Virus record (IMG/VR): IMGVR_UViG_3300038393_001497 | Coordinates: 1-28,550 of that record | DNA length: 28,550 nucleotides | Reading direction: 5' to 3' (one strand) | Origin: a virus | Lineage: Duplodnaviria; Caudoviricetes | Part shown: piece by piece, positions 5,307 to 20,571 of the stretch | Position numbering within the stretch: the stretch's first letter is position 1 | Layout of the letters: every line of letters begins with the position of its first letter | Made by a program: the position numbers and the translations under genes | The notes under the pieces: generated by a model | What the model was told of the DNA's origin: nothing | Databases searched by the model: none | The model's input: the letters and a program-made list of their open reading frames with translations, nothing else

Positions 5307-5315
5307 ATCCGTGTG

Positions 5316-5340
5316 GGCATATATCCCCTTGAAACATGTA
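5316..5340 (+). repeat. Left terminal inverted repeat of IS1595 element
   Basis: Matches revcomp of 7950-7974. Confidence 0.9.
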
Positions 5341-5363
5341 AGCACAATCGCTATATAAGGGGA

Positions 5364-6245
5364 ATGACGAAGAGCAAGGCACCGACCCTCCGGCAATTTC
5401 AGGACCGCTTCCCGACCGAGGATAGCTGCTTGGATCACCTGTTTGAGGTCCGCTACGCGGGCACGAATTGCCCGAAGTGCGACCGTCCGGTGAATTACAG
5501 CCGCGTTCGCGGTCGCCGCGCCTATCAGTGCGCATGGTGCGCGAACCAGCTTTATCCGACTGCTGGCACGCCGTTCGATCGCACTCGCACCAGCTTGCGC
5601 GATTGGTTCCTCGTCATGTTCATGTTCTGCACGACTCGGAACGGTGTCGCGGCCAAGGAAGTGCAGCGCCAGATCGGCGTCACCTATAAGACCGCGTGGC
5701 GCATGGCTCACGAAATCAGGAAGTACATGGGCCAGCTCGACAGCGACGATCCCTTGGGTGGCCCTGGGCAGATCGTTGAAATCGACGAAGCGATGCTTGG
5801 CGGCAAGGCCAAGGGCACTCGCGGCGGTCGGTTCGCTGGCAACAAAACCTGCGTTCTCGGAATGCTCGAAAACGGTGGCGAGATTGTCACCCGCATCGTT
5901 CCGAGCGTGAAGGCGCACCATCTTGTTCCCATCGTGCAGGAGCATGTCCTTCGCGGTACGCACATTCATACGGACGCGCTGCCGAGCTACCAGCATCTCG
6001 GAAACCACGGCTACCGGCACTCAAAGGTGCGGCATCAGGTCGGCGAATATGTCGGCTCCGAAGGCCAGACCGTAAACCGGATTGAAGGCTTCTGGTCGAT
6101 GCTGAAGCGCGGCATCAACGGCACGCACATTCATGTCAGCCCGAAGCATCTGCCGAAGTACCTTGGCGAGTTCGAGTACCGCTGGAACATGCGGCATGTG
6201 CCGCACTTGATGCTCGACCGGCTGATGCACTCGTTCACCCGCTAG
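5364..6245 (+). CDS. tnp: IS1595-family (ISXO2-like) DDE transposase
   Basis: Zn ribbon CPKC...CAWC, HTH with TAWRM, VEIDEAMLGG, IHTD, NRIEGFWSMLKRGI.GTH..VS.KHL..YL.EF.YRWN. ATG at 5364 follows AAGGGGA. Confidence 0.95.
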   Translation: MTKSKAPTLRQFQDRFPTEDSCLDHLFEVRYAGTNCPKCDRPVNYSRVRGRRAYQCAWCANQLYPTAGTPFDRTRTSLRDWFLVMFMFCTTRNGVAAKEVQRQIGVTYKTAWRMAHEIRKYMGQLDSDDPLGGPGQIVEIDEAMLGGKAKGTRGGRFAGNKTCVLGMLENGGEIVTRIVPSVKAHHLVPIVQEHVLRGTHIHTDALPSYQHLGNHGYRHSKVRHQVGEYVGSEGQTVNRIEGFWSMLKRGINGTHIHVSPKHLPKYLGEFEYRWNMRHVPHLMLDRLMHSFTR

Positions 6246-6586: not shown

Positions 6587-6596
6587 CTGAAGGGTG

Positions 6597-6669
6597 GGTG
6601 ACGGACCGGAATTGAACCGGCGACCTAACGGGTACCAACCATTCGCTCTACCACTGAGCTACCGCCACC
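6597..6669 (-). tRNA. Atypical tRNA, anticodon GGT (Thr), His-like acceptor stem
   Basis: Cloverleaf: G GTGGCGG TA GCTC AGTGGTA GAGC G AATGG TT-GGT-AC CCGTT AGGTC GCCGG TTCAATT CCGGT CCGTCAC C. All four stems pair; anticodon at 6644-6646. Confidence 0.88.
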
Positions 6670-7931: not shown

Positions 7932-8275
7932 CACTGCCCAACCCCTCCGTACATGTCGGAAGGGGATATATGCCTCCGTGTGACTCGGACGGCCGGGCGC
8001 AACGGCTCCAGTCCGTGAACGCGGCGCATTTGGTTTTCGGAGACGCCGCTTACCCACATCCATTTGGGCTTCCAGAACTGCCACCACGGGCGCGCCGGAA
8101 TCCGATAGCGGGGCGTGTGGTCGGGGTTCATCCTGCCAAGCCACGCCTCGGCCAGCGCCTCTTCGCGCCAATCGCCCATTGCGGTCCTCCCTAGCCCCGA
8201 TACCCACCCGTAAGGGCGGAGACAAACGCAGATTTGGCTCCGTTCATGGGTAGCGGGATAAGCTCCAAAATCCAT
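7928..8275 (-). CDS. Hypothetical phage protein with its 3' end interrupted by the IS
   Basis: MDFGAYPATHERS...PWWQFWKPK...VRVTR. The original end was RI-stop at 5303-5308; it now reads into TIR-R. Confidence 0.5.
   Translation of the reverse strand: MDFGAYPATHERSQICVCLRPYGWVSGLGRTAMGDWREEALAEAWLGRMNPDHTPRYRIPARPWWQFWKPKWMWVSGVSENQMRRVHGLEPLRPAVRVTRRHISPSDMYGGVGQC
7950..7974 (-). repeat. Right terminal inverted repeat of IS1595 element
   Basis: Revcomp matches 5316-5340, followed by TSD. Confidence 0.9.
8193..8266 (+). repeat. Structured repeat copy F (reduced)
   Basis: AGC C CCG ATA CCCA [CCCgtaaGGG][CGGAG ac aaacgcagattt gg CTCCG] TTCA TGGG TAG CGG..GCT CC. Shares 22 nt exactly with copy C. 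Confidence 0.65.
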
Positions 8276-8276
8276 A

Positions 8277-8729
8277 TCAATCGTTCTTATCCAGGGCTGC
8301 GCGAAGGGCGATGATGGTGTCGTCAACTTCATGCGCGATCATATGCGGTTGGTGACCGGGCGGCGTTTCGTTTCGGTATCGGCCCAAGAGTGCGAGCGCC
8401 TTCCGCACCAGCTCATCAACATCGCCAAGGTCGGGTGTGGGGCGAGCTGCTTGCATGGCTTGGTATATCGCGGTGTAAACTTCGCGGCAGTCGCCTCGAC
8501 CGCGCTGAAATGGTGACTGCGACATTCCCATTGCCCGGCGATGAGCGTGCCATGCCGCTTCAAACATCGCCTCGGTCGGCAGCTCTCTCGCTTCTTCCTG
8601 ACTTGATACCTCGGGCGGCCAGTAGGTGTCGCCGGGAGCGTGGAAGCCGTCCGAGCAGTATTCGTTGAGCAGCGGGTCTTGAACTCCGCAAGTCGGGCAG
8701 CAGTCCTGACTTGATGGTGAGGGGGTCAT
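8277..8729 (-). CDS. Hypothetical phage protein (N-terminal Cys cluster)
   Basis: MTPSPSSQDCCPTCG...RYRNETPPGHQPHMIAHEVD; part of coupled leftward operon; start uncertain. Confidence 0.55.
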   Translation of the reverse strand: MTPSPSSQDCCPTCGVQDPLLNEYCSDGFHAPGDTYWPPEVSSQEEARELPTEAMFEAAWHAHRRAMGMSQSPFQRGRGDCREVYTAIYQAMQAARPTPDLGDVDELVRKALALLGRYRNETPPGHQPHMIAHEVDDTIIALRAALDKND

Positions 8730-8730
8730 G

Positions 8731-8874
8731 CTATCCGTGACTCCGGCCAAGAACGTCGCAGTATTCATAGAGGCCCGTTCGACCAGCCCTGCGAGCGCGG
8801 GCGACACTCTCTCGCCGGAAGCATGGCTCACACCATTCATTCTCACGATTTTTCCCGTGCTGACATTTACCCAT
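8731..8874 (-). CDS. Small Cys/His-rich hypothetical protein
   Basis: MGKCQHGKNRENEWCEPCFRRE; overlaps the upstream stop. Confidence 0.45.
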   Translation of the reverse strand: MGKCQHGKNRENEWCEPCFRRESVARARRAGRTGLYEYCDVLGRSHG

Positions 8875-9082
8875 TATCTCGATCCTTCTTTGTTTCGGAA
8901 ATGCGGGCCAACGCGGCACGGGCTTTCATTATCTGACCGTATGCCGAGAGGATGTGCCTCAAACCGGTTTTCACGCCCATTTCGTCCAAGCGTCCGGCGA
9001 CTATTCCAAGCTGGTAAGTTGCATCGCCGAGCATTCGTGAACAGGCGAGCAAGTCGGCTTCGCGCTCATCATCGTTGGTCAT
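8867..9082 (-). CDS. Hypothetical protein
   Basis: 71-aa ORF with ATGA coupling. Confidence 0.55.
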   Translation of the reverse strand: MTNDDEREADLLACSRMLGDATYQLGIVAGRLDEMGVKTGLRHILSAYGQIMKARAALARISETKKDRDNG

Positions 9083-9615
9083 GGGTTAGAGCCTGGTGTG
9101 GATGGTCCTGGAGAAGGGCTGGGCGTCTCGGCTGCGCCGACCGCGTGCTCGTGAACGGCACCAATCTTCGTTGTTGCCGCCGTTCCGGCTTCGCCCGCTG
9201 ACGCGATGTTCGCCCTGTGAAGGGTCACACATTGCCGCAGCCCCGGCGCGCACCCGCCTCGCTCACGATGAGTTTTCTCGCCAACTGCGAAAGCGATTTC
9301 GGTGCCGCGCGAAATGAGGGCGCTTTCCGATTGTGCATCCTCTGCTCTCAATGACGCTAGCGCATTCTCGGCCTCAGCGCGGGTGCTATACGCGCGCACG
9401 TCTAGACCGTCTCTGACGAGAATGTGTCGTCGGTAGGGCCCGTGTAAGTCGATCCTATAGATATGCTTGGCGCTCATTTGCCGCCTCCCGCGATAGCCGA
9501 TTGAAGCGGGAACCGCCGAGACGTGAAACAGGCTCGGCCCGAAGGGCGAAAGCGGCGGTGCCGTAAGGCAATCGCCCGGAACCTTGCCGCGCCCATATCC
9601 TTCCTCATTGGTCAC
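9079..9615 (-). CDS. Hypothetical protein containing two inverted copies of the structured repeat (alternative start 9477)
   Basis: Open frame from GTG 9615 (overlapping the previous stop) or ATG 9477 (GGGAGG RBS). Confidence 0.5.
   Translation of the reverse strand: MTNEEGYGRGKVPGDCLTAPPLSPFGPSLFHVSAVPASIGYRGRRQMSAKHIYRIDLHGPYRRHILVRDGLDVRAYSTRAEAENALASLRAEDAQSESALISRGTEIAFAVGEKTHRERGGCAPGLRQCVTLHRANIASAGEAGTAATTKIGAVHEHAVGAAETPSPSPGPSTPGSNP
9121..9204 (-). repeat. Structured repeat copy E
   Basis: GCGTC A GCG G GCG AAG [CCGgaaCGG][CGGCA ac aacgaagatt gg TGCCG] TTCA CGA GCA CGC GGT [CGGCgcaGCCG] A GACGC CC. Confidence 0.8.
9490..9577 (+). repeat. Structured repeat copy A
   Basis: GCGAT A GCCG A TTG AAG [CGGgaaCCG][CCGAG ac gtgaaaca gg CTCGG][CCCgaaGGG] CGA AAG CGGC GGT [GCCgtaaGGC] A ATCGC CC. 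Confidence 0.85.
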
Positions 9616-9946
9616 TCCTCTGTTCAAGAGATGCGCGGGCTTCACGGAAATCACGAATTGTGACCTCCATTCCGACAGGGTGTTCCCAAGTGCTGGCATT
9701 GTCCGGCTCGCTATCGTCAATGCAATTCAGACATGCTTCTGCGAACGGAGCCAAAGCCATTCCGCGTTGAGCGACCTGGAACTCCAGCTCCCCGATCCTT
9801 CTCTCAACGATGGCATAGGCGGCTTGGGCCTCGGGAACGAAATCCTCGAAATCATCCGCAACGTAGTCAGACGGCTTCCCGCCATGCAGGCCGGCGCTCA
9901 TCGCGCGGCTAATCGCCTTCGCCATTTCCTCAACAATGTCCGTCAT
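9605..9946 (-). CDS. Hypothetical phage protein
   Basis: MTDIVEEMAKAI..ALAPFAE..TIRDFREARA; coupled ORF. Confidence 0.65.
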   Translation of the reverse strand: MTDIVEEMAKAISRAMSAGLHGGKPSDYVADDFEDFVPEAQAAYAIVERRIGELEFQVAQRGMALAPFAEACLNCIDDSEPDNASTWEHPVGMEVTIRDFREARASLEQRSDQ

Positions 9947-10188
9947 TTCGGTGTCTCCGGGGTGGCGGTGTCGGATCGGCGATGCTCGTTGTTGATCAGC
10001 ATCGCGAGCAGCCGAGCCGAGAACCGCAGCGACCGGGCCGCCTCGTCATTGCCGCGCAGGCCCGCGACGATCGCGTAGTCGATCAGGCGATTGTGGGCTG
10101 CGGCATACCGAACGCAGTCCGGCTCTTTCGCGTTGAAGCTGCTCGCGACAGCGCAGTGGGCGCGCAGCCATACCTCCTCACGCGTCAT
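9943..10188 (-). CDS. Hypothetical phage protein
   Basis: MTREEVWLRAHCAVA; ATGA coupled on both sides. Confidence 0.55.
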   Translation of the reverse strand: MTREEVWLRAHCAVASSFNAKEPDCVRYAAAHNRLIDYAIVAGLRGNDEAARSLRFSARLLAMLINNEHRRSDTATPETPK

Positions 10189-10346
10189 GCCAGCCTCAGC
10201 GCGATCTGGGTTCCAACACCACCGGCTATCAAGCCGAACACCACCGCCCATTCCGGACCGGGATGCAGCACGCTTGCCAGCACTCCTGCGCCTAGTCCGC
10301 CGATCAAACAACCGACGACAGCGAAGACGATATCGCGCTTTCTCAT
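10185..10346 (-). CDS. Small two-TM membrane protein, 53 aa (not in ORF track)
   Basis: MRKRDIVFAVVGCLIGGLGAGVLASVLHPGPEWAVVFGLIAGGVGTQIALRLA; ATGA overlaps on both ends. Confidence 0.6.
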   Translation of the reverse strand: MRKRDIVFAVVGCLIGGLGAGVLASVLHPGPEWAVVFGLIAGGVGTQIALRLA

Positions 10347-10528
10347 TGCATTTGCCTCCGGCGTTTCATCTCCTGAAACTCAGCCCACGCCGCATCAAAG
10401 TCAGCGTCTGTATAGCCCTTGCGCCAGAGTGGGCGCGTGGCCTCGCGGAACTCCTCTCGGTCGAGTTCATCGAGACGCGCCCCGTCGTGTGGATCGGAAT
10501 CTTCAGGTAATTCCGGGTAGGCCCGCAT
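10343..10528 (-). CDS. Hypothetical protein, first gene after attP
   Basis: GGAGG RBS then MRAYPELPEDSDPHDGARLDELDREEF. Confidence 0.6.
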   Translation of the reverse strand: MRAYPELPEDSDPHDGARLDELDREEFREATRPLWRKGYTDADFDAAWAEFQEMKRRRQMQ

Positions 10529-10545
10529 TAGTCGCCTCCAAATAG

Positions 10546-10574
10546 ACAGGGGCCGAGGTTCACCTTGAACCTTC
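10546..10574 (+). repeat. Putative integrase arm-type site (left)
   Basis: ACAGGGGCCGAG-GTTCACCTTGAACCTTC, direct repeat of 10755-10784. Confidence 0.65.
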
Positions 10575-10666
10575 CAGCCCGAACTGTGCTGCAATGTGCA
10601 CCTTCCGGTGCTATTCTGTTCCCAAGGGAAATATCCCGACGCCACTACGCAGCGGCGAGGGGAAAC

Positions 10667-10714
10667 GCCTTCGGGAGGCAGGGGCCGGAGGTTCGAATCC
10701 TCTCTCCCCGACCA
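10667..10714 (+). other. attP: attP core: 3' half of tRNA-Pro(CGG)
   Basis: GCC TTCGGGA GGCAG GGGCC GGAGG TTCGAAT CCTCT CTCCCCG ACCA gives anticodon loop, T-arm and acceptor 3' strand with CCA. No D-arm or 5' half; adjacent to the 3' end of int. Confidence 0.85.
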
Positions 10715-10754
10715 ATTCTGTAGCGGAAATCCGCCATTCTTGCAAGAAAAAAGC

Positions 10755-10784
10755 ACAGGGGCCGAAGATTCACATTGAACCTTC
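10755..10784 (+). repeat. Putative integrase arm-type site (right)
   Basis: ACAGGGGCCGAAGATTCACATTGAACCTTC. Confidence 0.65.
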
Positions 10785-11811
10785 ATGCGTCAATTTCCCC
10801 GAGCTGAACCGCATCGGAAACCGTGCGGAGGAAGTCCGGCGAGAAGCGCGCGTAGTGCTGTTCGGTGGTCGCACTATCTTCGTGGCCCATGTATTGGGCG
10901 AGCACGTGCATCGGCACTCCGGCCTCTGCCGCCCAGACGGCTCCGGTATGGCGAAGCATGTAGGGCGTGACCTTGATCCCCGACCGTTCTGACGCGGCCT
11001 GAAACGCCTTCTTGATTGAGCGGATCGGCTCTGCGCCGCGCTCGATGATATACTCGCTCTGACGGCCCTCATAGGCCAGCTGCAGCGCTTCCATCGTCTC
11101 AGCGTTCAAGGGGACGACCGGACGCCGCTTGCGCGTCTGTTTGCGTCCAGGCGGGTTTAGATTGACGGTCGAGTGCTCCCAATCAAGCTGCGCCCACTGA
11201 AGCTCTAGGATCGCGGACGGGCGGGCCATCGTCGCAATGCCGAGCCTGACATACAGGCGGGCATGTGGAGCCTTCACTTCCCTGAACCATTTGCGGAACT
11301 TCGCACGATTGAGGGAACGCACCTTACGCTCGGCGACATCCGGCCTCCACAACGGCTTGACCCGCTGTATCTTGTTATTATCAGCGGCCCACTTCAGCGC
11401 CACCGATACAAGCGAAAGTTCGTAGCGCACTGTGGCCGGTGCCCGCTTGCGCTGAGCGGCGTAATCCTTCGCCATCTGCGCGTCGATCAGCGCGGGGTCG
11501 ATCTTCGCCCAGAAGGGCTTGAGCGCTTTCCACGCGTCCTCTTGCCTCGCGCTGGAGAGAATGCCAGCCTCCTTTCGGGCGGTGATGTATTCAGTCACAA
11601 CGCGCCCTACCGTCCACGGCTCGCCCGTGTCGCCCTTCTTCCATCGCTGGCGGGCCTCGGCCTCGGCCCCAGCCCTATCGGCGGCATATAGGCGCTCGCG
11701 ATGTCGCTTCGGCTTGCCAGCCCTGTCCCTGACGGGGTTTCCGTGTTCGTCGAGGACTGCATAGACGCAGGCCCAGGCCCCTCGGAAACGCTGGACGGTA
11801 TATTCTGGCAC
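10783..11811 (-). CDS. int: Phage integrase, tyrosine recombinase
   Basis: TMARPSAIL (R), YMLRHT, YMGH..TTEQHY (catalytic Tyr); next to attP. Confidence 0.93.
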   Translation of the reverse strand: MPEYTVQRFRGAWACVYAVLDEHGNPVRDRAGKPKRHRERLYAADRAGAEAEARQRWKKGDTGEPWTVGRVVTEYITARKEAGILSSARQEDAWKALKPFWAKIDPALIDAQMAKDYAAQRKRAPATVRYELSLVSVALKWAADNNKIQRVKPLWRPDVAERKVRSLNRAKFRKWFREVKAPHARLYVRLGIATMARPSAILELQWAQLDWEHSTVNLNPPGRKQTRKRRPVVPLNAETMEALQLAYEGRQSEYIIERGAEPIRSIKKAFQAASERSGIKVTPYMLRHTGAVWAAEAGVPMHVLAQYMGHEDSATTEQHYARFSPDFLRTVSDAVQLGEIDA

Positions 11812-11957
11812 TCGAACCTCCGAACCTCCTCTGCGGGGATGCGTATTAGCGTGCCGAGCCGAAAGCAGCCAAGCTCACCGTTGGCGATGGCCTTGCGGAT
11901 CACGCCCTCGGAGCAGCCCCATTCGGCGGCAAGCGACGAGACAGTGTAAGCCCTCAT
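11607..11957 (-). CDS. xis: Excisionase (HTH_17/MerR-like wHTH)
   Basis: YTVSSLAAEWGCSEGVIRKAIANGELGCFRLGTLIRIPAEEVRRF, immediately upstream of int. Confidence 0.8.
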   Translation of the reverse strand: MRAYTVSSLAAEWGCSEGVIRKAIANGELGCFRLGTLIRIPAEEVRRFECQNIPSSVSEGPGPASMQSSTNTETPSGTGLASRSDIASAYMPPIGLGPRPRPASDGRRATRASRGR

Positions 11958-12145
11958 CTGCGGCCCGCGATAGCCGATCGAAGCCCAACGGGCCGAGACA
12001 GTGAAACATGGCTCGGTTCACGAGAGCGGCGGTGCCAACGGCAATCGCCCAATATGTATTCCCTATGCCCCTTCTTTCTTACCAATACCCAGGGTGATCT
12101 TAGGCTTAGCTTTGAGTCCAAATACTGACGATGGTAAGTTTTCAT
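11954..12145 (-). CDS. Small hypothetical ORF made of an AT-rich segment plus repeat copy B
   Basis: ATGA coupled on both sides. Confidence 0.4.
   Translation of the reverse strand: MKTYHRQYLDSKLSLRSPWVLVRKKGHREYILGDCRWHRRSREPSHVSLSRPVGLRSAIAGRR
11967..12050 (+). repeat. Structured repeat copy B
   Basis: GCGAT A GCCG A TCG AAG [CCCaacGGG][CCGAG ac agtgaaacat gg CTCGG] TTCA CGA GAG CGGC GGT [GCCaacGGC] A ATCGC CC. Confidence 0.85.
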
Positions 12146-12708
12146 GGCGCATTCCCTTCGGGAACCGGGCCGTCGTGAACCGAGCCGCCAATCTTTGTTG
12201 CCGTCTCGGCCCGTTGGGCTTCCGTCCCTTGCGCGGCGCGAGCGCGTAGAGCGGCGGCGCAGAGGGCGAGGGCGGGGGTTGCGGCACTTGCGCCTTTGCT
12301 CTCGTCCGTCTCAGCAGTAGGATCGCCTACGAGCGCATATGGCCGATTGGCGGATGGGCCTACGCTCGAAACGACGAAGCCCCTCCCCTCCGGCACCAGC
12401 GCCATTGCTGCGTCGAGGGAGGCGGTGTAGCGCGCCCCATCGGCCATCCAGTCGATACGAAAGTTGCTCTCACGTTCGCCGTGCAATTCAGCGCCAGCCA
12501 TAACCAGCGACCGCTCGTGCGGGGTCGCTACCGCAGCGAGCCAAATCTCGCGGTCGAGCTTGGCGTCGGCGGCCTTTGCGCGCTCACAGCGGCGGGCGAG
12601 TTTCTTGACGCGCGAAGGATCGAAGCCCGCAGGGTGGAGATGCATAGCAGCTCCATCGCTTGCGACCAGAGCCTGACCCGAAGGGGCGCGCCCAGTATCT
12701 ATATCCAT
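12142..12708 (-). CDS. Hypothetical phage protein
   Basis: YTASLDAAMALVPEG..ATPALALCAAALRARA pattern typical of alphaproteobacterial phage proteins; C-terminus encoded by repeat D. Confidence 0.7.
   Translation of the reverse strand: MDIDTGRAPSGQALVASDGAAMHLHPAGFDPSRVKKLARRCERAKAADAKLDREIWLAAVATPHERSLVMAGAELHGERESNFRIDWMADGARYTASLDAAMALVPEGRGFVVSSVGPSANRPYALVGDPTAETDESKGASAATPALALCAAALRARAAQGTEAQRAETATKIGGSVHDGPVPEGNAP
12145..12234 (-). repeat. Structured repeat copy D
   Basis: GCGCA A GGG A CGG AAG [CCCaacGGG][CCGAG ac ggcaacaaagattggc gg CTCGG] TTCA CGA CGG CCC GGT [TCCCgaaGGGA] A TGCGC CA. Confidence 0.8.
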
Positions 12709-12733
12709 CCCACTAATCTCCTCACTGGGTCAG

Positions 12734-13138
12734 TCATGCTGCCTCATCCTTCGATTCATCGCTCCAGCGCACTCCGTGTTCATCACCGAACGCCTGGAGC
12801 CAGTCGATCAGCGTGCTCATCTGTGACTTGGTGAGGTGTGAGGAGCGAAACCCTTTCGGGAACGGGCGACCGTCCAGCCCCTCAAGGAATTGGCACTCCC
12901 AACCACAAGCGTTCATCGCTATGGCCTTCCAGTCGTCCGGCGTGTGCCGACGCACCTGCCCATTGTGGACGGGGCAGGCGACGGAAATATCTGTAAGCAT
13001 CGCCCACATCTTGTCCGACTGACTGACCGTCCGCGCCGGCTCGCGCACTTCGCCGACGTAGCCCGATGGGGCCTTGTCCACGATCCGCTTGAAGCGCTCG
13101 CGGCTGAAGGGATTGGTAAGGATGACGCGGTGTGTCAT
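12734..13138 (-). CDS. ninB: NinB/Orf family recombination protein
   Basis: RTVSQSDKMWAMLTDIS, DWK, GFRSSHLTKSQMSTLIDWLQAFGDEHGVRWS. Confidence 0.88.
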   Translation of the reverse strand: MTHRVILTNPFSRERFKRIVDKAPSGYVGEVREPARTVSQSDKMWAMLTDISVACPVHNGQVRRHTPDDWKAIAMNACGWECQFLEGLDGRPFPKGFRSSHLTKSQMSTLIDWLQAFGDEHGVRWSDESKDEAA

Positions 13139-13473
13139 TGCCGCTCCATCAGCTTTTGCCGGTGCGGCGACAGCTTGAAGAACATCTCCGCCAGCGCCTT
13201 CATGTCGATATGCGTCTCGGCCTCGAACGCCGCTTCGCCGATCTGATGCTGGCGAGCATGGCAGTCTTTACAAAGGCTGATGCACCATTGGTCGCTTGGC
13301 TTAATGCCAACGCCGCCGTCAGTTCCTGTCCGCACATGGGCGCACTCGATCGCCGTCTGCGTCCCGCAAGCTGAGCAAGCATGTCCGCGAACCCATGCGC
13401 GGTGACCGGGGCTGCGGCGCGGCTTTTCGGCCTTGTCCGACTTGCGGCTGATGCGGGATGGGAGGAAGGTCAT
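13135..13473 (-). CDS. DUF968-like putative HNHc nuclease
   Basis: HRAWVRGHACSACG..ECAHVR..GIKPSDQWCISLCKDCHARQHQIGE. Confidence 0.8.
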   Translation of the reverse strand: MTFLPSRISRKSDKAEKPRRSPGHRAWVRGHACSACGTQTAIECAHVRTGTDGGVGIKPSDQWCISLCKDCHARQHQIGEAAFEAETHIDMKALAEMFFKLSPHRQKLMERQ

Positions 13474-13482
13474 CGCTCGATC

Positions 13483-13758
13483 CTAAAAAGGAACGTCCGA
13501 ATCGTCGTCGAACTCGCTGGCGGGTTGCGGCGCATATCCGGGCGGCGTGTTATGGCTGCGCTGCTGCTGAGCCTCCTTCGGCTTGATCTTCAGCGACATA
13601 TACTTGCTGCCGTCCTTGGCCGTATTGATCCACGCGTCGAGCCAGCATTCGCCAAGCCCATCGACCAGTGCCGACCCCTTGTAATCGGGGTGCGTGTCGG
13701 CCTCCTTGCGCTCGTTCTTGAACAAGCTGCCGGTATTGGGTTTCATCTCGTAAGCCAT
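13483..13758 (-). CDS. Small SSB-like protein with acidic tail
   Basis: GSLFKNERKE..HPDYKG..WLDAW..KYMSL; ends DDDSDVPF. Confidence 0.7.
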   Translation of the reverse strand: MAYEMKPNTGSLFKNERKEADTHPDYKGSALVDGLGECWLDAWINTAKDGSKYMSLKIKPKEAQQQRSHNTPPGYAPQPASEFDDDSDVPF

Positions 13759-13759
13759 T

Positions 13760-14545
13760 TTATGCGTTCTCCGCTTCGAGGCCGGCGAGGCCGTGCCTGA
13801 TGTTGTCCACTTCGATCTGCAGCGGCGTGAAGTCCGCCGGAACGGACGGCCCGCCGAACCACCAGTCGGGAAGGTCGCGTTTGAGCTGCGCGACGAACTC
13901 CTTGACCTCGGCGGTGCGCTTCCATTCCTCGAAGTCCGCCAGCGACCCCATGCTGTGCAGGGTTCTCACGAACTCCTTCGCTGCCTTCTGAAGCTGCGTC
14001 CGGCAAGTGTAGGGGCCATCCAGGACGACGCGCTTCTGGGGTGGCGTCTCACCCGTCGTAGGGCGGTAATCGGCCCGGTTGTCCTGAACCTCGTCGGGGT
14101 CGTCGCCAGTTTCGAGGCCGAGCACCTTCAGCAGCGCGTATTTGACACCGTAGGAGATGGCCTTTCCCGGTCCCTTGTCCTGTGGATCCACGCCGTAGCC
14201 CATCGTCTCCACGTCGATGTAGTCGGCGCGGTTGTCGATGTTCTCGAAGCGGACGGAGAATACCGCCTCGGTGCGGTTGCCGTTCTGCTGGACCGTCAGG
14301 CCGCGCGGGTAGTAGATCACGCCGTGCTTGTGCAGCAGCGGGCGAACCTTCGCCGTCACCGCGTCATGCGAGACGATAGAGTAGTTCATGCCCTGCTTGC
14401 GCTCTTTCTGGACGTAATCGACTTCGCCCATGACGGCGGCGATGCGCTGCGCGATGTTGCGCTGACGGTCCATCTCGCTCAACACATCGGCGACGGTTTC
14501 CCCAACGACCTTGAGCGGCTTATCCTGGGTTGATCGGGTTGCCAT
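13760..14545 (-). CDS. erf: ERF-family single-strand annealing protein
   Basis: QDKGPGKAISYGVKYALLKVLGLETGDDPD ERF signature. Confidence 0.85.
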   Translation of the reverse strand: MATRSTQDKPLKVVGETVADVLSEMDRQRNIAQRIAAVMGEVDYVQKERKQGMNYSIVSHDAVTAKVRPLLHKHGVIYYPRGLTVQQNGNRTEAVFSVRFENIDNRADYIDVETMGYGVDPQDKGPGKAISYGVKYALLKVLGLETGDDPDEVQDNRADYRPTTGETPPQKRVVLDGPYTCRTQLQKAAKEFVRTLHSMGSLADFEEWKRTAEVKEFVAQLKRDLPDWWFGGPSVPADFTPLQIEVDNIRHGLAGLEAENA

Positions 14546-14733
14546 TATGCGGCCTCCTGCGTCTGGATCATTGCGCGAACGGCAGCGCGAATTGCGTGGA
14601 GCGTTGCTCGCTGGATTGGGTGGTTCGGATCGACCGTGCTGCGCGGCCATTGCCAGTAGTCGTTGTAGGCATCCTCAAATGCCTGCAGCGCATCGACCTC
14701 GGCGGTCTTGAGCTTCGGGAGTCGGGCTGCCAT
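14545..14733 (-). CDS. Hypothetical protein
   Basis: MAARLPKLKTAEVDALQAF; TAATG coupling. Confidence 0.55.
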   Translation of the reverse strand: MAARLPKLKTAEVDALQAFEDAYNDYWQWPRSTVDPNHPIQRATLHAIRAAVRAMIQTQEAA

Positions 14734-14921
14734 TACTGACCGCCCTCGTCGGAGGGGCAAGCGCGTTTGAGGCGCGCACCCCCGTCGCCGAAACCGGCCA
14801 TGTAGTCTCGCGCCCCACACAAGACGCAAACCTCATCGTAAAGACTGCTGTCAGAGAACCGGGTCACATGCCCGTTTTCGTCGGCGGCGCCATATTTCTC
14901 GATTGCCTCGCCTCTCGTCAC
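14733..14921 (-). CDS. Small Cys-containing hypothetical protein
   Basis: H..RFSDSSLYDEVCVLCGARD. Confidence 0.6.
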   Translation of the reverse strand: MTRGEAIEKYGAADENGHVTRFSDSSLYDEVCVLCGARDYMAGFGDGGARLKRACPSDEGGQ

Positions 14922-15190
14922 GAATTGCTGGCGGGCTGCTTATTGGGCGAACCCGCCTCCCTGGTTGTTGCGATACGGATCGGCTCAATGCACAGAGAGA
15001 ATGCGAGCGAACCGCCTTTTTCTGTGACGGTTATCTCAACCCCGTCGCACTCGGCCTTCAGAAGTGGCTCATGCTTGTTCAGAAGGTCGGTCACTATCCC
15101 CGCCAAGCTCTCGGCCATTCGCCCGACATGTGATTGTCGCGCCTGAATGGGTGCCAGAATGTCGGTCATGAAATCAGGCAAAGCGCTCAT
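14918..15190 (-). CDS. Hypothetical protein
   Basis: GGAGG RBS, MSALPDFMT; coupled. Confidence 0.55.
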   Translation of the reverse strand: MSALPDFMTDILAPIQARQSHVGRMAESLAGIVTDLLNKHEPLLKAECDGVEITVTEKGGSLAFSLCIEPIRIATTREAGSPNKQPASNS

Positions 15191-15465
15191 GCCGCCCTCC
15201 GTTTCGGTTCGAGATGTGGAAGCGGATCGGATGCGACCTCGGTAAGCTGTCCGCCCTCGGCTATTCTCCGCTTCGCCTCGATCACTTGTGGGTTTCCGTA
15301 GGAGGAGCATTCACAGCCGCTCAGGATCAGCTCGACATAGCGCTCGACGCCCGCGTTCCATTCCGCCAGCTTTTGCTCGGGAGTGCGAATGTTGAGCCCA
15401 AGCGACCGTGCGAAGTCCTGCGGTGAGACCTGCGATGCGTCGGCGGTGATGACACGGCGGGTCAT
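15187..15465 (-). CDS. Hypothetical protein
   Basis: ATGA-coupled ORF in the leftward early operon. Confidence 0.55.
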   Translation of the reverse strand: MTRRVITADASQVSPQDFARSLGLNIRTPEQKLAEWNAGVERYVELILSGCECSSYGNPQVIEAKRRIAEGGQLTEVASDPLPHLEPKRRAA

Positions 15466-15731
15466 TGGCGCGCTCTTTCGAGGACGGCGGCAGCCTTCCG
15501 GATCGTGTCGAGTGAGACGCGGATCGTGAGGCTGTCAGCGGTGCCGGAAACAATGTCGCGTTCTTTGAGGTTGAATCCCTCCAGCGCCTCATAAAGTTCG
15601 ACGAGCACGGCTGCGGCCTCGGCAATGTCGCGTTCACCAATGCGATCACCTGCCTTCCCGACAATCTTTGCCGCGTTCCTCGTGCGATTCACAATCGGCA
15701 GTTCCGCGCCTGAGGCAGAGGGGCGAGTCAT
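15462..15731 (-). CDS. Hypothetical protein
   Basis: MTRPSASGAELP..ELYEALE; coupled. Confidence 0.55.
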   Translation of the reverse strand: MTRPSASGAELPIVNRTRNAAKIVGKAGDRIGERDIAEAAAVLVELYEALEGFNLKERDIVSGTADSLTIRVSLDTIRKAAAVLERARQ

Positions 15732-15958
15732 TGCTGGCCTCGCAGTGCAGCAACCTTGTCGCGCGCTAGGGCCGAGACAGAGCGACGGTGCTGCGCCTCT
15801 TTGACGCAAGTTTCACAGTCGCTGGCACTGTAGTCCCCATTGCCCTCGAAGCAGACCCAATTGGTGTCGGCCAACCACTCGCCGCACAGCGTCAGGTGCG
15901 AATTGAGCGTCGTCACCGGACTGGCGATGTGAACCGTACCTGGTATTGATCTACTCAT
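15728..15958 (-). CDS. Small Cys/His protein (possible Zn-binding)
   Basis: VH..TLCG..DCETC. Confidence 0.55.
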   Translation of the reverse strand: MSRSIPGTVHIASPVTTLNSHLTLCGEWLADTNWVCFEGNGDYSASDCETCVKEAQHRRSVSALARDKVAALRGQQ

Positions 15959-16253
15959 CTGATGGACCCCGGTGAGGGTTGGAGTTCACGAGCAGATACG
16001 GATCGCGCTTGAAGTAGGCCCATTCCGCAGCGGCCTCCGCGACCTTGAGCAAGTCTGCGGCGCTTGCCGAAAACGGTTCCGGCATGGTGATCCAGCTGTC
16101 GACTGCGGCGATCAACTTCGCCTCGGCTTTCTCCGGCGAGCCAATCAGCGGATTGGGCCACGGAAGCCGCTCAAGCGTGTCGAACAGCCGATGCAGCGCT
16201 GCGTCGCCCGCGTTCACGGCGCGATCCACAGTGCAATGGCATATCCAGCGCAC
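15951..16253 (-). CDS. Hypothetical protein (start uncertain)
   Basis: Open frame in operon. Confidence 0.45.
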   Translation of the reverse strand: MRWICHCTVDRAVNAGDAALHRLFDTLERLPWPNPLIGSPEKAEAKLIAAVDSWITMPEPFSASAADLLKVAEAAAEWAYFKRDPYLLVNSNPHRGPSDE

Positions 16254-16423
16254 ACGGACATGATGAGGATACGGGCGAGACTAGCAGCGATATGCGATGG
16301 TCGCCGAATGGCCGAGACAAACGCAGATTTGGCTCGGTGCGAAGCACGACCAGCGCGGTGACGCGCAGCGGCAATCGCCCAAAACCCATCGGGATAAATC
16401 ACCACATGGCGGGGACGAGTCAT
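16214..16423 (-). CDS. Small hypothetical ORF containing repeat copy C, C-terminal TM
   Basis: ATGA coupled; ends ILIMSVCAGYAIALWIAP. Confidence 0.45.
   Translation of the reverse strand: MTRPRHVVIYPDGFWAIAAARHRAGRASHRAKSAFVSAIRRPSHIAASLARILIMSVCAGYAIALWIAP
16287..16380 (+). repeat. Structured repeat copy C
   Basis: GCGAT AT GCG AT GGTCG [CCgaatGG][CCGAG ac aaacgcagattt gg CTCGG][TGCgaaGCA] CGACC AG CGC GGT GA [CGCgcaGCG] GCA ATCGC CC. Confidence 0.8.
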
Positions 16424-19708: not shown

Positions 19709-20571
19709 TGGCCCCGCTCGCGATCGATCTTTGCTGCGGCTTGGGAGGCTGGACGGAGGGCCTACTTTCCGAAGGCTGGCAGGTCCGCGGCTACGACATC
19801 GAAGCGCACGAATACGGCGAGGAGCGCTATCCTGCCGAACTTGTCCTCCGAAACGTGCTCGAGATGCACGGCTCCGAGATTGCCGACGCCGACTTGATCG
19901 TCGCCTCGCCGCCATGCACCGAATACTCCTACATGGCGATGCCGTGGAAGCGCGCGAAGCAGATTGCTCGGGCGCTCCGTGGCGAGGACGAGTTCCCCGA
20001 GCCCTATCGCGGCTCGCGCACTGTAGCACAACTCAACGCGATCTTCGACGCCTGCTTTCGGCTGCAACGCGAGGCGAGCGAGGCCGCTGGTCGCTACATT
20101 CCGATGGTCGTGGAGAATGTCCGCGGTGCCGAGCCGTGGGTGGGTCGCTCTGGCTGGAATTATGGATCGTTCTACTTGTGGGGCGATTTGCCCGCGCTTA
20201 TGCCGCCCGCCACCAACGCGGTGAAAGTGCCGAGCTTCCGCTTCGATGGGTCGGGCCGCTCATTTCAAAGCGAAAGTGTCCGGCGCACGGACGTAGGCAA
20301 AGGTGCTCGGTTCACGATCCGCGATTGCGGCATCGAAGGACGCAAGCGCCCCGGCATCAGCTTCGCCCAAGAGGGCTTCAACTGTACGCTTGCCCGTGAG
20401 CTAGCACCGACGCTCAAGCGCGGTGCCGTTAAGCTGTCGGACGAAGATCGCCGCCAACACCTTAGCTCGGCTCGCAAAGCCGCTTCCGCCAAGATCGCGA
20501 AAATCCCCTTCGCGCTCAGCTCGCACATCGCCCGTGTCTATAAGCCTTCCTTGGCAGCGGAGGCAGCATGA
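19708..20571 (+). CDS. Orphan C5-cytosine DNA methyltransferase
   Basis: Motif I DLCCGLGG, motif IV ASPPC, motif VI VENV, C-terminal AKIP. Confidence 0.8.
   Translation: MAPLAIDLCCGLGGWTEGLLSEGWQVRGYDIEAHEYGEERYPAELVLRNVLEMHGSEIADADLIVASPPCTEYSYMAMPWKRAKQIARALRGEDEFPEPYRGSRTVAQLNAIFDACFRLQREASEAAGRYIPMVVENVRGAEPWVGRSGWNYGSFYLWGDLPALMPPATNAVKVPSFRFDGSGRSFQSESVRRTDVGKGARFTIRDCGIEGRKRPGISFAQEGFNCTLARELAPTLKRGAVKLSDEDRRQHLSSARKAASAKIAKIPFALSSHIARVYKPSLAAEAA

Follow-up and report, generated by a model that had tools for sequence, protein, structure and literature searches.

The 28,550 nucleotides (nt) analysed here as the window, IMG/VR virus record IMGVR_UViG_3300038393_001497, form a 28.5-kb fragment of a temperate phage in which divergent repeats of about 85 nt lie within a leftward early operon, and the question that this locus raises is what these repeats are and do. 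An earlier note, made from the letters alone, had described six copies in the accessory operons, ascribed to them one shared fold under selection as single-stranded DNA (ssDNA), and offered as candidates an attC-like recombination site, a REP/RPE-like mobile palindrome or an ssDNA protein-loading signal. We find that the element family is real, widespread and maintained at the DNA level, that it recurs in microviruses and conjugative plasmids, and that it is confined to mobile DNA. Judged from sequence, there is roughly an even chance that the element represents a new class of single-strand initiation (ssi) signal read by the host, the repeats of which double as points of gene exchange.

A multibranched fold predicted for single-stranded DNA

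A covariance model, R1, was built from 30 elements of other loci, none of them in the window. R1 recovered all six copies at the positions and on the strands first described, with scores of 79.7 (copy D), 72.9 (E), 72.7 (B), 68.0 (A), 47.0 (C) and 22.7 (F) bits, and it added a seventh that had been overlooked, copy G (12610-12691, plus strand; 65.5 bits, with the match spanning 12608-12694). The best score in the window outside these seven was 15.8 bits. On shuffled sequence, nhmmer reached at most 9.8 bits (3.9-Mb locus set) and the pattern descriptor at most 28 (1.1 Mb), compared with a cut-off of 29. Early descriptors missed some copies, namely A, E and G in the first version and E and G in the next. 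Folded singly as DNA, the copies gave z-scores between −1.5 and −5.0 for the described strand, compared with −0.4 to −3.2 for its complement.

Read 5' to 3', the element of ~85 nt begins with an outer stem, P1 (GCGNN/NNCGC), followed by an A, stem P2, an A.G mismatch, stem P3, hairpin 1 and stem P4. Beyond P4 come a second A.G mismatch, a Y-R pair and a variable stem-loop, then either TTCA or hairpin 2, the return strands of P3 and P2, hairpin 3, the closing strand of P1 and an unpaired CC or CA tail. The fold thus contains two junctions and two A.G mismatches. P3 consists of two pairs, a tandem GA/GA and one further pair in 230 of 280 parsed elements and of six pairs in the rest. What had been called a fixed AC/GG internal element is indeed conserved, and its nature is that of an A.G mismatch followed by the Y-R pair; the site reads AC/GG in 275 of the 280 elements and AT/AG in five, copy G being of the latter type. 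The additional mismatch between P2 and P3 is G.A in copy E. One of the hairpins listed earlier as of GNA type, CCCaacGGG, does not belong there, since its aac loop is not GNA. Of the phage copies, 247 of 278 end in the CC or CA tail, as do 5 of 5 from microviruses and 9 of 9 from plasmids.

In the alignment of 30 sequences, 97.3% of 714 cells are paired, 20 of 24 pairs show changes on both sides, and none shows a one-sided (wobble) change, which bears out the proposal of a single covarying fold with compensatory changes. The members were chosen from 46 that passed a pairing-based descriptor, so these covariation figures are biased towards structure; the independent test of the fold is the recovery by R1 of the window, microvirus and plasmid copies.

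Several features point to ssDNA as the folded molecule. A census of 900 loops returned 466 GNA triloops, 36 GNRA and no UUCG loops, and GNA mini-hairpins are stable as DNA. G.T pairs amount to 0 to 3% per position. The described strand has the lower DNA folding energy in 363 of 370 elements, and in 298 when RNA energies are used. Together with the fixed A.G mismatches and the lack of wobble changes, these data agree with the earlier suggestion that selection acts on a folded DNA strand, and the element is predicted to fold as ssDNA. A peptide constraint is excluded because copies occur in both orientations and in intergenic DNA. The repeats match no existing Rfam family: a scan of the window (E up to 1) returned a tRNA and nothing else, and scans of four genome loci gave no family match.

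Occurrence in phages, microviruses and conjugative elements

A set of at least 530 loci (5.6 Mb) was assembled from pattern scans, one protein scan and named records. It yielded at least 556 matches, of which at least 470 are distinct with their flanks (315 fully parsed, 97 with a complete profile and 58 partial), and named GTDB hosts among the matches listed are mostly Alphaproteobacteria and Pseudomonas. The family is present in the accessory operons where it was first noticed and extends beyond both the window and phages. Four near-complete temperate phage genomes contain 14, 13, 11 and 7 matches, each cluster lying within 14 to 21 kb and in both orientations, and the cultured Sphingopyxis phage VSN-002 has four strong matches.

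Microviruses carry the element as one intergenic copy on the gene-coding strand, which in these viruses is the virion strand, in all seven element-bearing records (L021, L039, L065, L413, L052, L332 and L333). These represent some four to five lineages, as the first four are mutually related; the copy in L052 appears twice through a terminal repeat. In KT264808 the element occupies the space behind the major capsid gene, where phiX174 and G4 have their signals. Neither R1 nor the descriptor matches anywhere in the whole phiX174 and G4 genomes, and a BLAST search of a named phage collection matched only two microviruses, so the element is a minority feature of this group. A further candidate, MT839809, was rejected as a microvirus, as it has no capsid match and resembles a leading-region fragment. 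L021, L039, L065 and L413 belong to one group, whose genomes of 5.8 kb have phiX174-like capsid and Rep genes. Short BLAST matches in the phage collection fell in phages of Arthrobacter, Bacillus, Clostridium, Bacteroides and others.

Among conjugative plasmids, F carries copies at 58090-58174 and 63478-63562, R100 and R388 two each, R46 three, and an IncN-like Escherichia coli plasmid four. In F, ssb and ygeA each have the element ~470 bp upstream, on the template strand of the gene; it lies ~100 nt 3' of the Frpo hairpin, from which it folds separately. The R46 and R388 copies likewise sit on the transferred strand (T-strand) within leading-region repeats, with strand and place as in F. Matches were found in 1,229 records of a plasmid collection, 883 of them conjugative, and in 2,266 of 5,426 complete E. 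coli genomes, where 4,830 of 4,890 places are plasmid-borne and 60 chromosomal. R6K, ColE9-J, R751 and ColIb-P9 gave no R1 match. A longer relative with the same foot stands just 3' of Frpo-like repeats in ColIb-P9 and in the third R100 repeat; such relatives, another of which lies at R388 20077-20212, keep the central stem and add arms, and the ColIb-P9 and R100 long forms escape R1. We dropped the notion that the element is absent from plasmids encoding their own primase, because ColIb-P9 has this relative, with the same central stem, at the equivalent place.

In GTDB loci resembling integrative and conjugative elements (ICEs), ardC is antisense to the element and on its 5' side in 38 of 78 cases; in 2 it is found on the 3' side. 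Twenty-two loci encode relaxase-like proteins, a label that we presume to apply to the DUF3363 proteins of the ICE-like loci; 10 show the F-like arrangement, and in 12 the relaxase is on the element's own strand. At 9820-9950 of L257 and in related Bradyrhizobium loci, two copies of another structured motif with GNA hairpins lie between ardC and the element. It is also found elsewhere without the element, and it has no Rfam match.

Gene exchange at the repeats and a putative initiation signal

Neighbouring copies in phages are most often back to back, with their 5' feet facing (92 pairs, 80 of them no more than 900 bp apart; median gap, 381 bp). Face-to-face neighbours number 56 (median, 2,081 bp) and direct ones 45 (2,192 bp). 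Two slots of the back-to-back type, E-A and D-G, lie in the window. A stop-free frame runs across element, cargo and element in 58 of 80 slots, against 29.9 expected. The cargo often opens with a ribosome site placed at the foot, or else it is a gene with trimmed ends: element-free homologues of the window D-G cargo extend a few codons past the D junction, and a cytosine methyltransferase cargo is joined just ahead of what we take to be its first motif. Short genes of this methyltransferase-like type recur in L010, L011, L059, L067, L012, L017 and L048 with elements at one, both or neither end, which makes them a good case for dating junction events.

Among 282 viral elements, pairs that share flanks do so on the 3' side only in 16 cases, on the 5' side only in 1 and on both sides in 4. 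In 7 of the 16 the element is near identical and the break falls at the foot. Flanks thus often change at the 5' foot, in line with the link to recombination first proposed; a strict cut there was rejected on these same counts, and exchanges are also seen inside the element or at its 3' tail. The flank asymmetry may be partly due to a larger pool of cargos. Four slot pairs, including L017 and the window, keep the backbone and change the cargo. Logan contigs from four runs depart from the window at 12235/12236, the foot of D, and rejoin it at 12706; other contig pieces begin at the feet of B and G, and the same cargo also turns up next to a different element or without one. Within the D-G cargo gene, positions 12274-12386 are hypervariable, with many alternative inner segments in related contigs, a variation unrelated to the element. 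No tested enzyme family was found in all multi-copy loci, and a dedicated enzyme was rejected; DUF968-like genes are the commonest neighbour and occur in 27 of 42 such loci, as does integrase, in loci that are partial genomes searched with few enzyme queries.

The reading of the element as an initiation signal follows from its occurrence on the exposed strand in both microviruses and conjugative plasmids (7 of 7 microviruses, F, R46 and R388), since second-strand synthesis by host enzymes is the sole need common to a microvirus genome and a transferred plasmid strand. A host priming machine, whether primosome, primase or RNA polymerase, would bind the fold and start a complementary strand that runs into the DNA on the element's 5' side. 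In microviruses the element would be the minus-strand origin; on conjugative elements it would assist in making the transferred leading strand double-stranded; and in temperate phages copies on both strands could prime single-stranded recombination and repair intermediates. The phage's ERF-type annealase would probably swap cargo at or within the copies, using them as homology arms, given that two back-to-back copies flank a short gene, both directed into it, and supply ~85 nt of similarity; the sharp junctions would be accounted for by a strand end that remains at the 5' foot. The accessible text of PMC9865509 holds that any microvirus probably needs such a structure, and leading genes are read from the T-strand according to excerpts of PMC11541004 and PMC9849209. 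Among the three roles in the earlier note, an ssDNA protein-loading signal fits best, with a partner likelier to be a host protein than the integrase, ERF or SSB of the window because the element stands alone in microviruses and conjugative plasmids. A bolder version, which we regard as unlikely, would have the element as the common second-strand signal of microviruses and conjugative elements and the phage pairs as self-priming, integrase-free cassettes in which the foot captures and trims genes; each copy would prime across the cargo, much like a pair of PCR primers.

A number of results weigh against an initiation signal. In F, rifampicin abolishes early conversion at psiA and ygeB, and conversion of psiA mostly awaits the ssp2 roadblock (bioRxiv 10.64898/2026.01.09.698686, accessible part); the F copies are therefore not efficient rifampicin-resistant priming sites in E. 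coli. As far as that part goes, the F data argue against strong primase-only priming and leave an RNA-polymerase-linked role. The cloned F ssiD (D90178) ends ~100 nt short of the element, a Frpo* 6 candidate reaches its first ~35 nt, and ssiE is unrelated, as given in the portion of the PMC11541004 supplement at hand, so there is no indication that the classical ssi screen detected the element. Phage copies have no strand polarity (98 antisense and 95 sense), unlike a lagging-strand site, and priming by itself would not lead one to expect junctions at the foot. In 12 of the 22 relaxase loci, where oriT is unmapped, placement on the T-strand is not established. The CC or CA tail is present in only 65 of 120 GTDB copies, in which a universal primase trinucleotide in the tail also fails and was rejected. 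As for exchange, 9 of the 16 pairs with a shared 3' flank differ within the element; the 7 foot breaks include two microvirus pairs and three pairs from one trio; the contig joints rest on 29 to 32 letters per side at 90% likeness; and the region is mosaic also at gene borders far from any copy.

Known initiation signals share part of this description. The phiX174 n'-pas (PriA), the G4 primase origin and ColE1 ssiA/ssiB are likewise short folded ssDNA with GNA mini-hairpins; those of the phiX174 and G4 type are also intergenic on the microvirus virion strand, and plasmids carry such signals as they do the element. The element differs in its two junctions, two A.G mismatches and tandem GA, and in its 7 to 14 copies in both orientations in temperate phages. 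Identity was rejected, as ColE1, like phiX174 and G4, has no model or descriptor match anywhere. GCG-N-AGC mini-hairpins, as in a minority subtype of the element, occur in the phiX174 F-G gap (2310-2370) and the ColE1 origin region (1310-1370), where the models do not match. Frpo/ssiD and ColIb ssi1-3 (class 1 ssp) are likewise on the T-strand upstream of leading genes, and Frpo shares with the element the ~550-bp repeats of F and R100. Unlike Frpo, the element is a separate domain 3' of the hairpin, outside cloned ssiD, with neither −35/−10 boxes nor the long promoter-rebuilding hairpin, and it occurs without Frpo in phages, microviruses, IncN and IncW.

Other repeats resemble the element in their setting. 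The CUP repeats of IncN/IncN2 and the long repeats of R388, which we take to be those named LDR, are one such case: the element makes up the end farthest from the genes in both R388 repeats and in the two longest R46 repeats. CUP has been described as an upstream regulatory repeat, and the shorter R46 repeats lack the element. The plasmid copies belong to repeats upstream of ard/ccg genes, whereas the window copies stand without the rest of the repeat. Recombination between CUP repeats has been proposed to delete the intervening region (PMC3490853, in the text available). Integron attC sites and the DUF1874 motif are likewise folded ssDNA beside exchangeable small genes with a breakpoint near the foot (PMC5737381, accessible part). 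An attC site is a single imperfect hairpin with R/L boxes in arrays of uniform orientation; the element is multibranched, lies in both orientations, has no fixed integrase and occurs singly in microviruses, in which an integrase would not be expected, and the Rfam DUF1874 model did not match the window repeats. The PeSL cassettes of T4-type phages likewise place short repeats in variable regions with gene shuffling, but as far as the available text of Arbiol 2010 (PMC2839356) describes them, they are sigma70 promoters and terminator stem-loops, neither of which the element has; it bears ssDNA signatures instead.

Four other explanations were weighed. By analogy with IntI at attC and HUH transposases at hairpins, an integrase or the DUF968/HNH-like protein might cut the 5' foot of a folded recombination or nicking site and join new DNA. 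Such cutting would suit the breaks at the foot, the retention of the element with its 3' flank, the rarity of G at position −1 (9 of 278 phage copies), the exchange of modules at the same foot between F and both ColIb-P9 and R100, and the frequency of DUF968-like neighbours. We nevertheless consider it quite improbable, as neither enzyme family is found beyond 27 of the 42 loci, a nick at a single copy would open a microvirus genome, and both orientations and crossovers elsewhere (the 9 of 16 pairs) occur. With orientations equal, no universal enzyme and exchanges elsewhere in the element, an attC-like site falls away as the primary role. It is just as doubtful that the element is a compact single-strand promoter or accessory domain at whose 5' foot RNA polymerase starts an RNA serving as mRNA and primer. 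In 19 of 98 antisense and 3 of 95 sense copies, a Shine-Dalgarno sequence with a start codon lies no more than 30 nt from the foot; in addition, the element adjoins Frpo, and early F conversion is rifampicin sensitive in the preprint cited above, as far as its text could be consulted. However, no window copy has a −35/−10 match, sense copies would transcribe into gene ends, Frpo functions as a 328-bp hairpin whose folding is separate from that of the element, and operon read-through would also lead to ribosome sites at the foot.

Slightly less probable is a protective cap or roadblock, in which the nuclease-resistant fold would stop an exonuclease or polymerase on ssDNA so that cargo breaks are trimmed to both feet and promoter hairpins are shielded. 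The back-to-back geometry with junctions at the feet, the trimming of cargo genes to their cores, the stability of GNA mini-hairpins and, in the accessible part of the same preprint, the ssp2 roadblock of F as a precedent all suit it; yet a microvirus genome, being circular, lacks an end in need of protection, and a roadblock would do it harm, and the many invariant bases and mismatches suggest reading by a specific protein. A structured RNA on either strand, or a REP/RPE-like mobile palindrome, is very unlikely. Of 606 C-GNA-G hairpins, 205 could form cUNCGg with a second pair on the opposite strand, and copies lie in open frames, as the stop-free slots attest, but 228 cannot form UNCG and 173 would have the closing pair only; the 714 alignment cells contain no wobble change, the purine mismatches would become pyrimidine mismatches on the other strand, and Rfam gave no match. 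REP/RPE-like insertion was likewise abandoned: no empty site with rejoined flanks was found among the matches listed, and the few chromosomal places in E. coli do not amount to chromosomal dispersal.

The plasmid repeats (Frpo, CUP and R388) have long been known; the fold as a unit has apparently not been described. In the accessible literature, which did not cover the primary ssi and CUP papers, we found no account of the fold or of its spread through phages and microviruses. Priming of incoming ssDNA is unsettled for most microviruses and conjugative elements, and the element offers a defined 85-nt candidate that comes with a covariance model and occurs in F, R46, R388, E. coli genomes and phage VSN-002, which makes it readily testable. 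Beyond that, multibranched DNA structures are rare in nature, and this one links the shuffling of accessory genes in temperate phages of alphaproteobacterial type to a sequence feature.

The copies and neighbouring genes of the window

The window encodes an integrase, an excisionase-like protein, NinB, a DUF968/HNH-like protein, SSB, ERF, a repressor, RusA, a replication initiator and a terminase. Copy F (8193-8266, plus strand), antisense to the leftward genes, is a reduced form with a 3-bp outer stem, no third hairpin and a CCA tail; GGAGG and ATG lie 12 nt from its 5' foot. Copy E (9123-9204, minus strand; CC tail at 9121-9122) is in sense orientation, and the cargo open reading frame (ORF) at 9079-9477 reads through it. 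The same ORF continues into the first cargo slot (9205-9489, minus strand; 285 bp, from the 5' foot of E to that of A), which begins with GGAGG and ATG 12 nt from the foot of copy A and is present intact in contigs of runs X1, X3 and X8. Copy A (9490-9575, plus strand; CC tail at 9576-9577) is antisense and has a four-way inner junction.

Copy B (11967-12048, plus strand; CC tail at 12049-12050) is antisense and lies within the ORF at 11954-12145, its 5' foot 9 nt ahead of the excisionase-like ATG; contig pieces in runs X2 and X5 start at 11967, its foot, and their preceding letters differ from the window. Copy D (12147-12234, minus strand) is in sense orientation, with a CA tail that runs into the ATG at 12145 and a foot that takes the place of the last few codons of the cargo gene. 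The second slot (12235-12609, minus strand; 375 bp, from the 5' foot of D to that of G) holds a gene fragment fused in frame to both elements within the ORF at 12142-12708, and other cargo occupies it in L017. Copy G, with its CC tail at 12692-12693, is antisense. Copy C (16287-16378, plus strand; CC tail at 16379-16380), also antisense, combines a six-pair P3 with a four-way inner junction.

The tyrosine integrase and excisionase-like genes occupy 10783-11957 on the minus strand, and a recombination module of NinB, the DUF968/HNH-like protein, a small SSB and the ERF annealase follows at 12734-14545 on the same strand; the members of this module are candidate helpers of exchange at the repeats. 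Downstream of the integrase, the 3' half of a tRNA-Pro with a CGG anticodon (10669-10714, plus strand) is likely the attP core of that integrase; related contigs run into a full tRNA 5' half at 10669. Four small genes stand between this tRNA half and copy A. Elsewhere, an IS1595-family transposase gene (5313-6245) adjoins the lysis region, and a tRNA-Thr(GGT) lies at 6596-6668.

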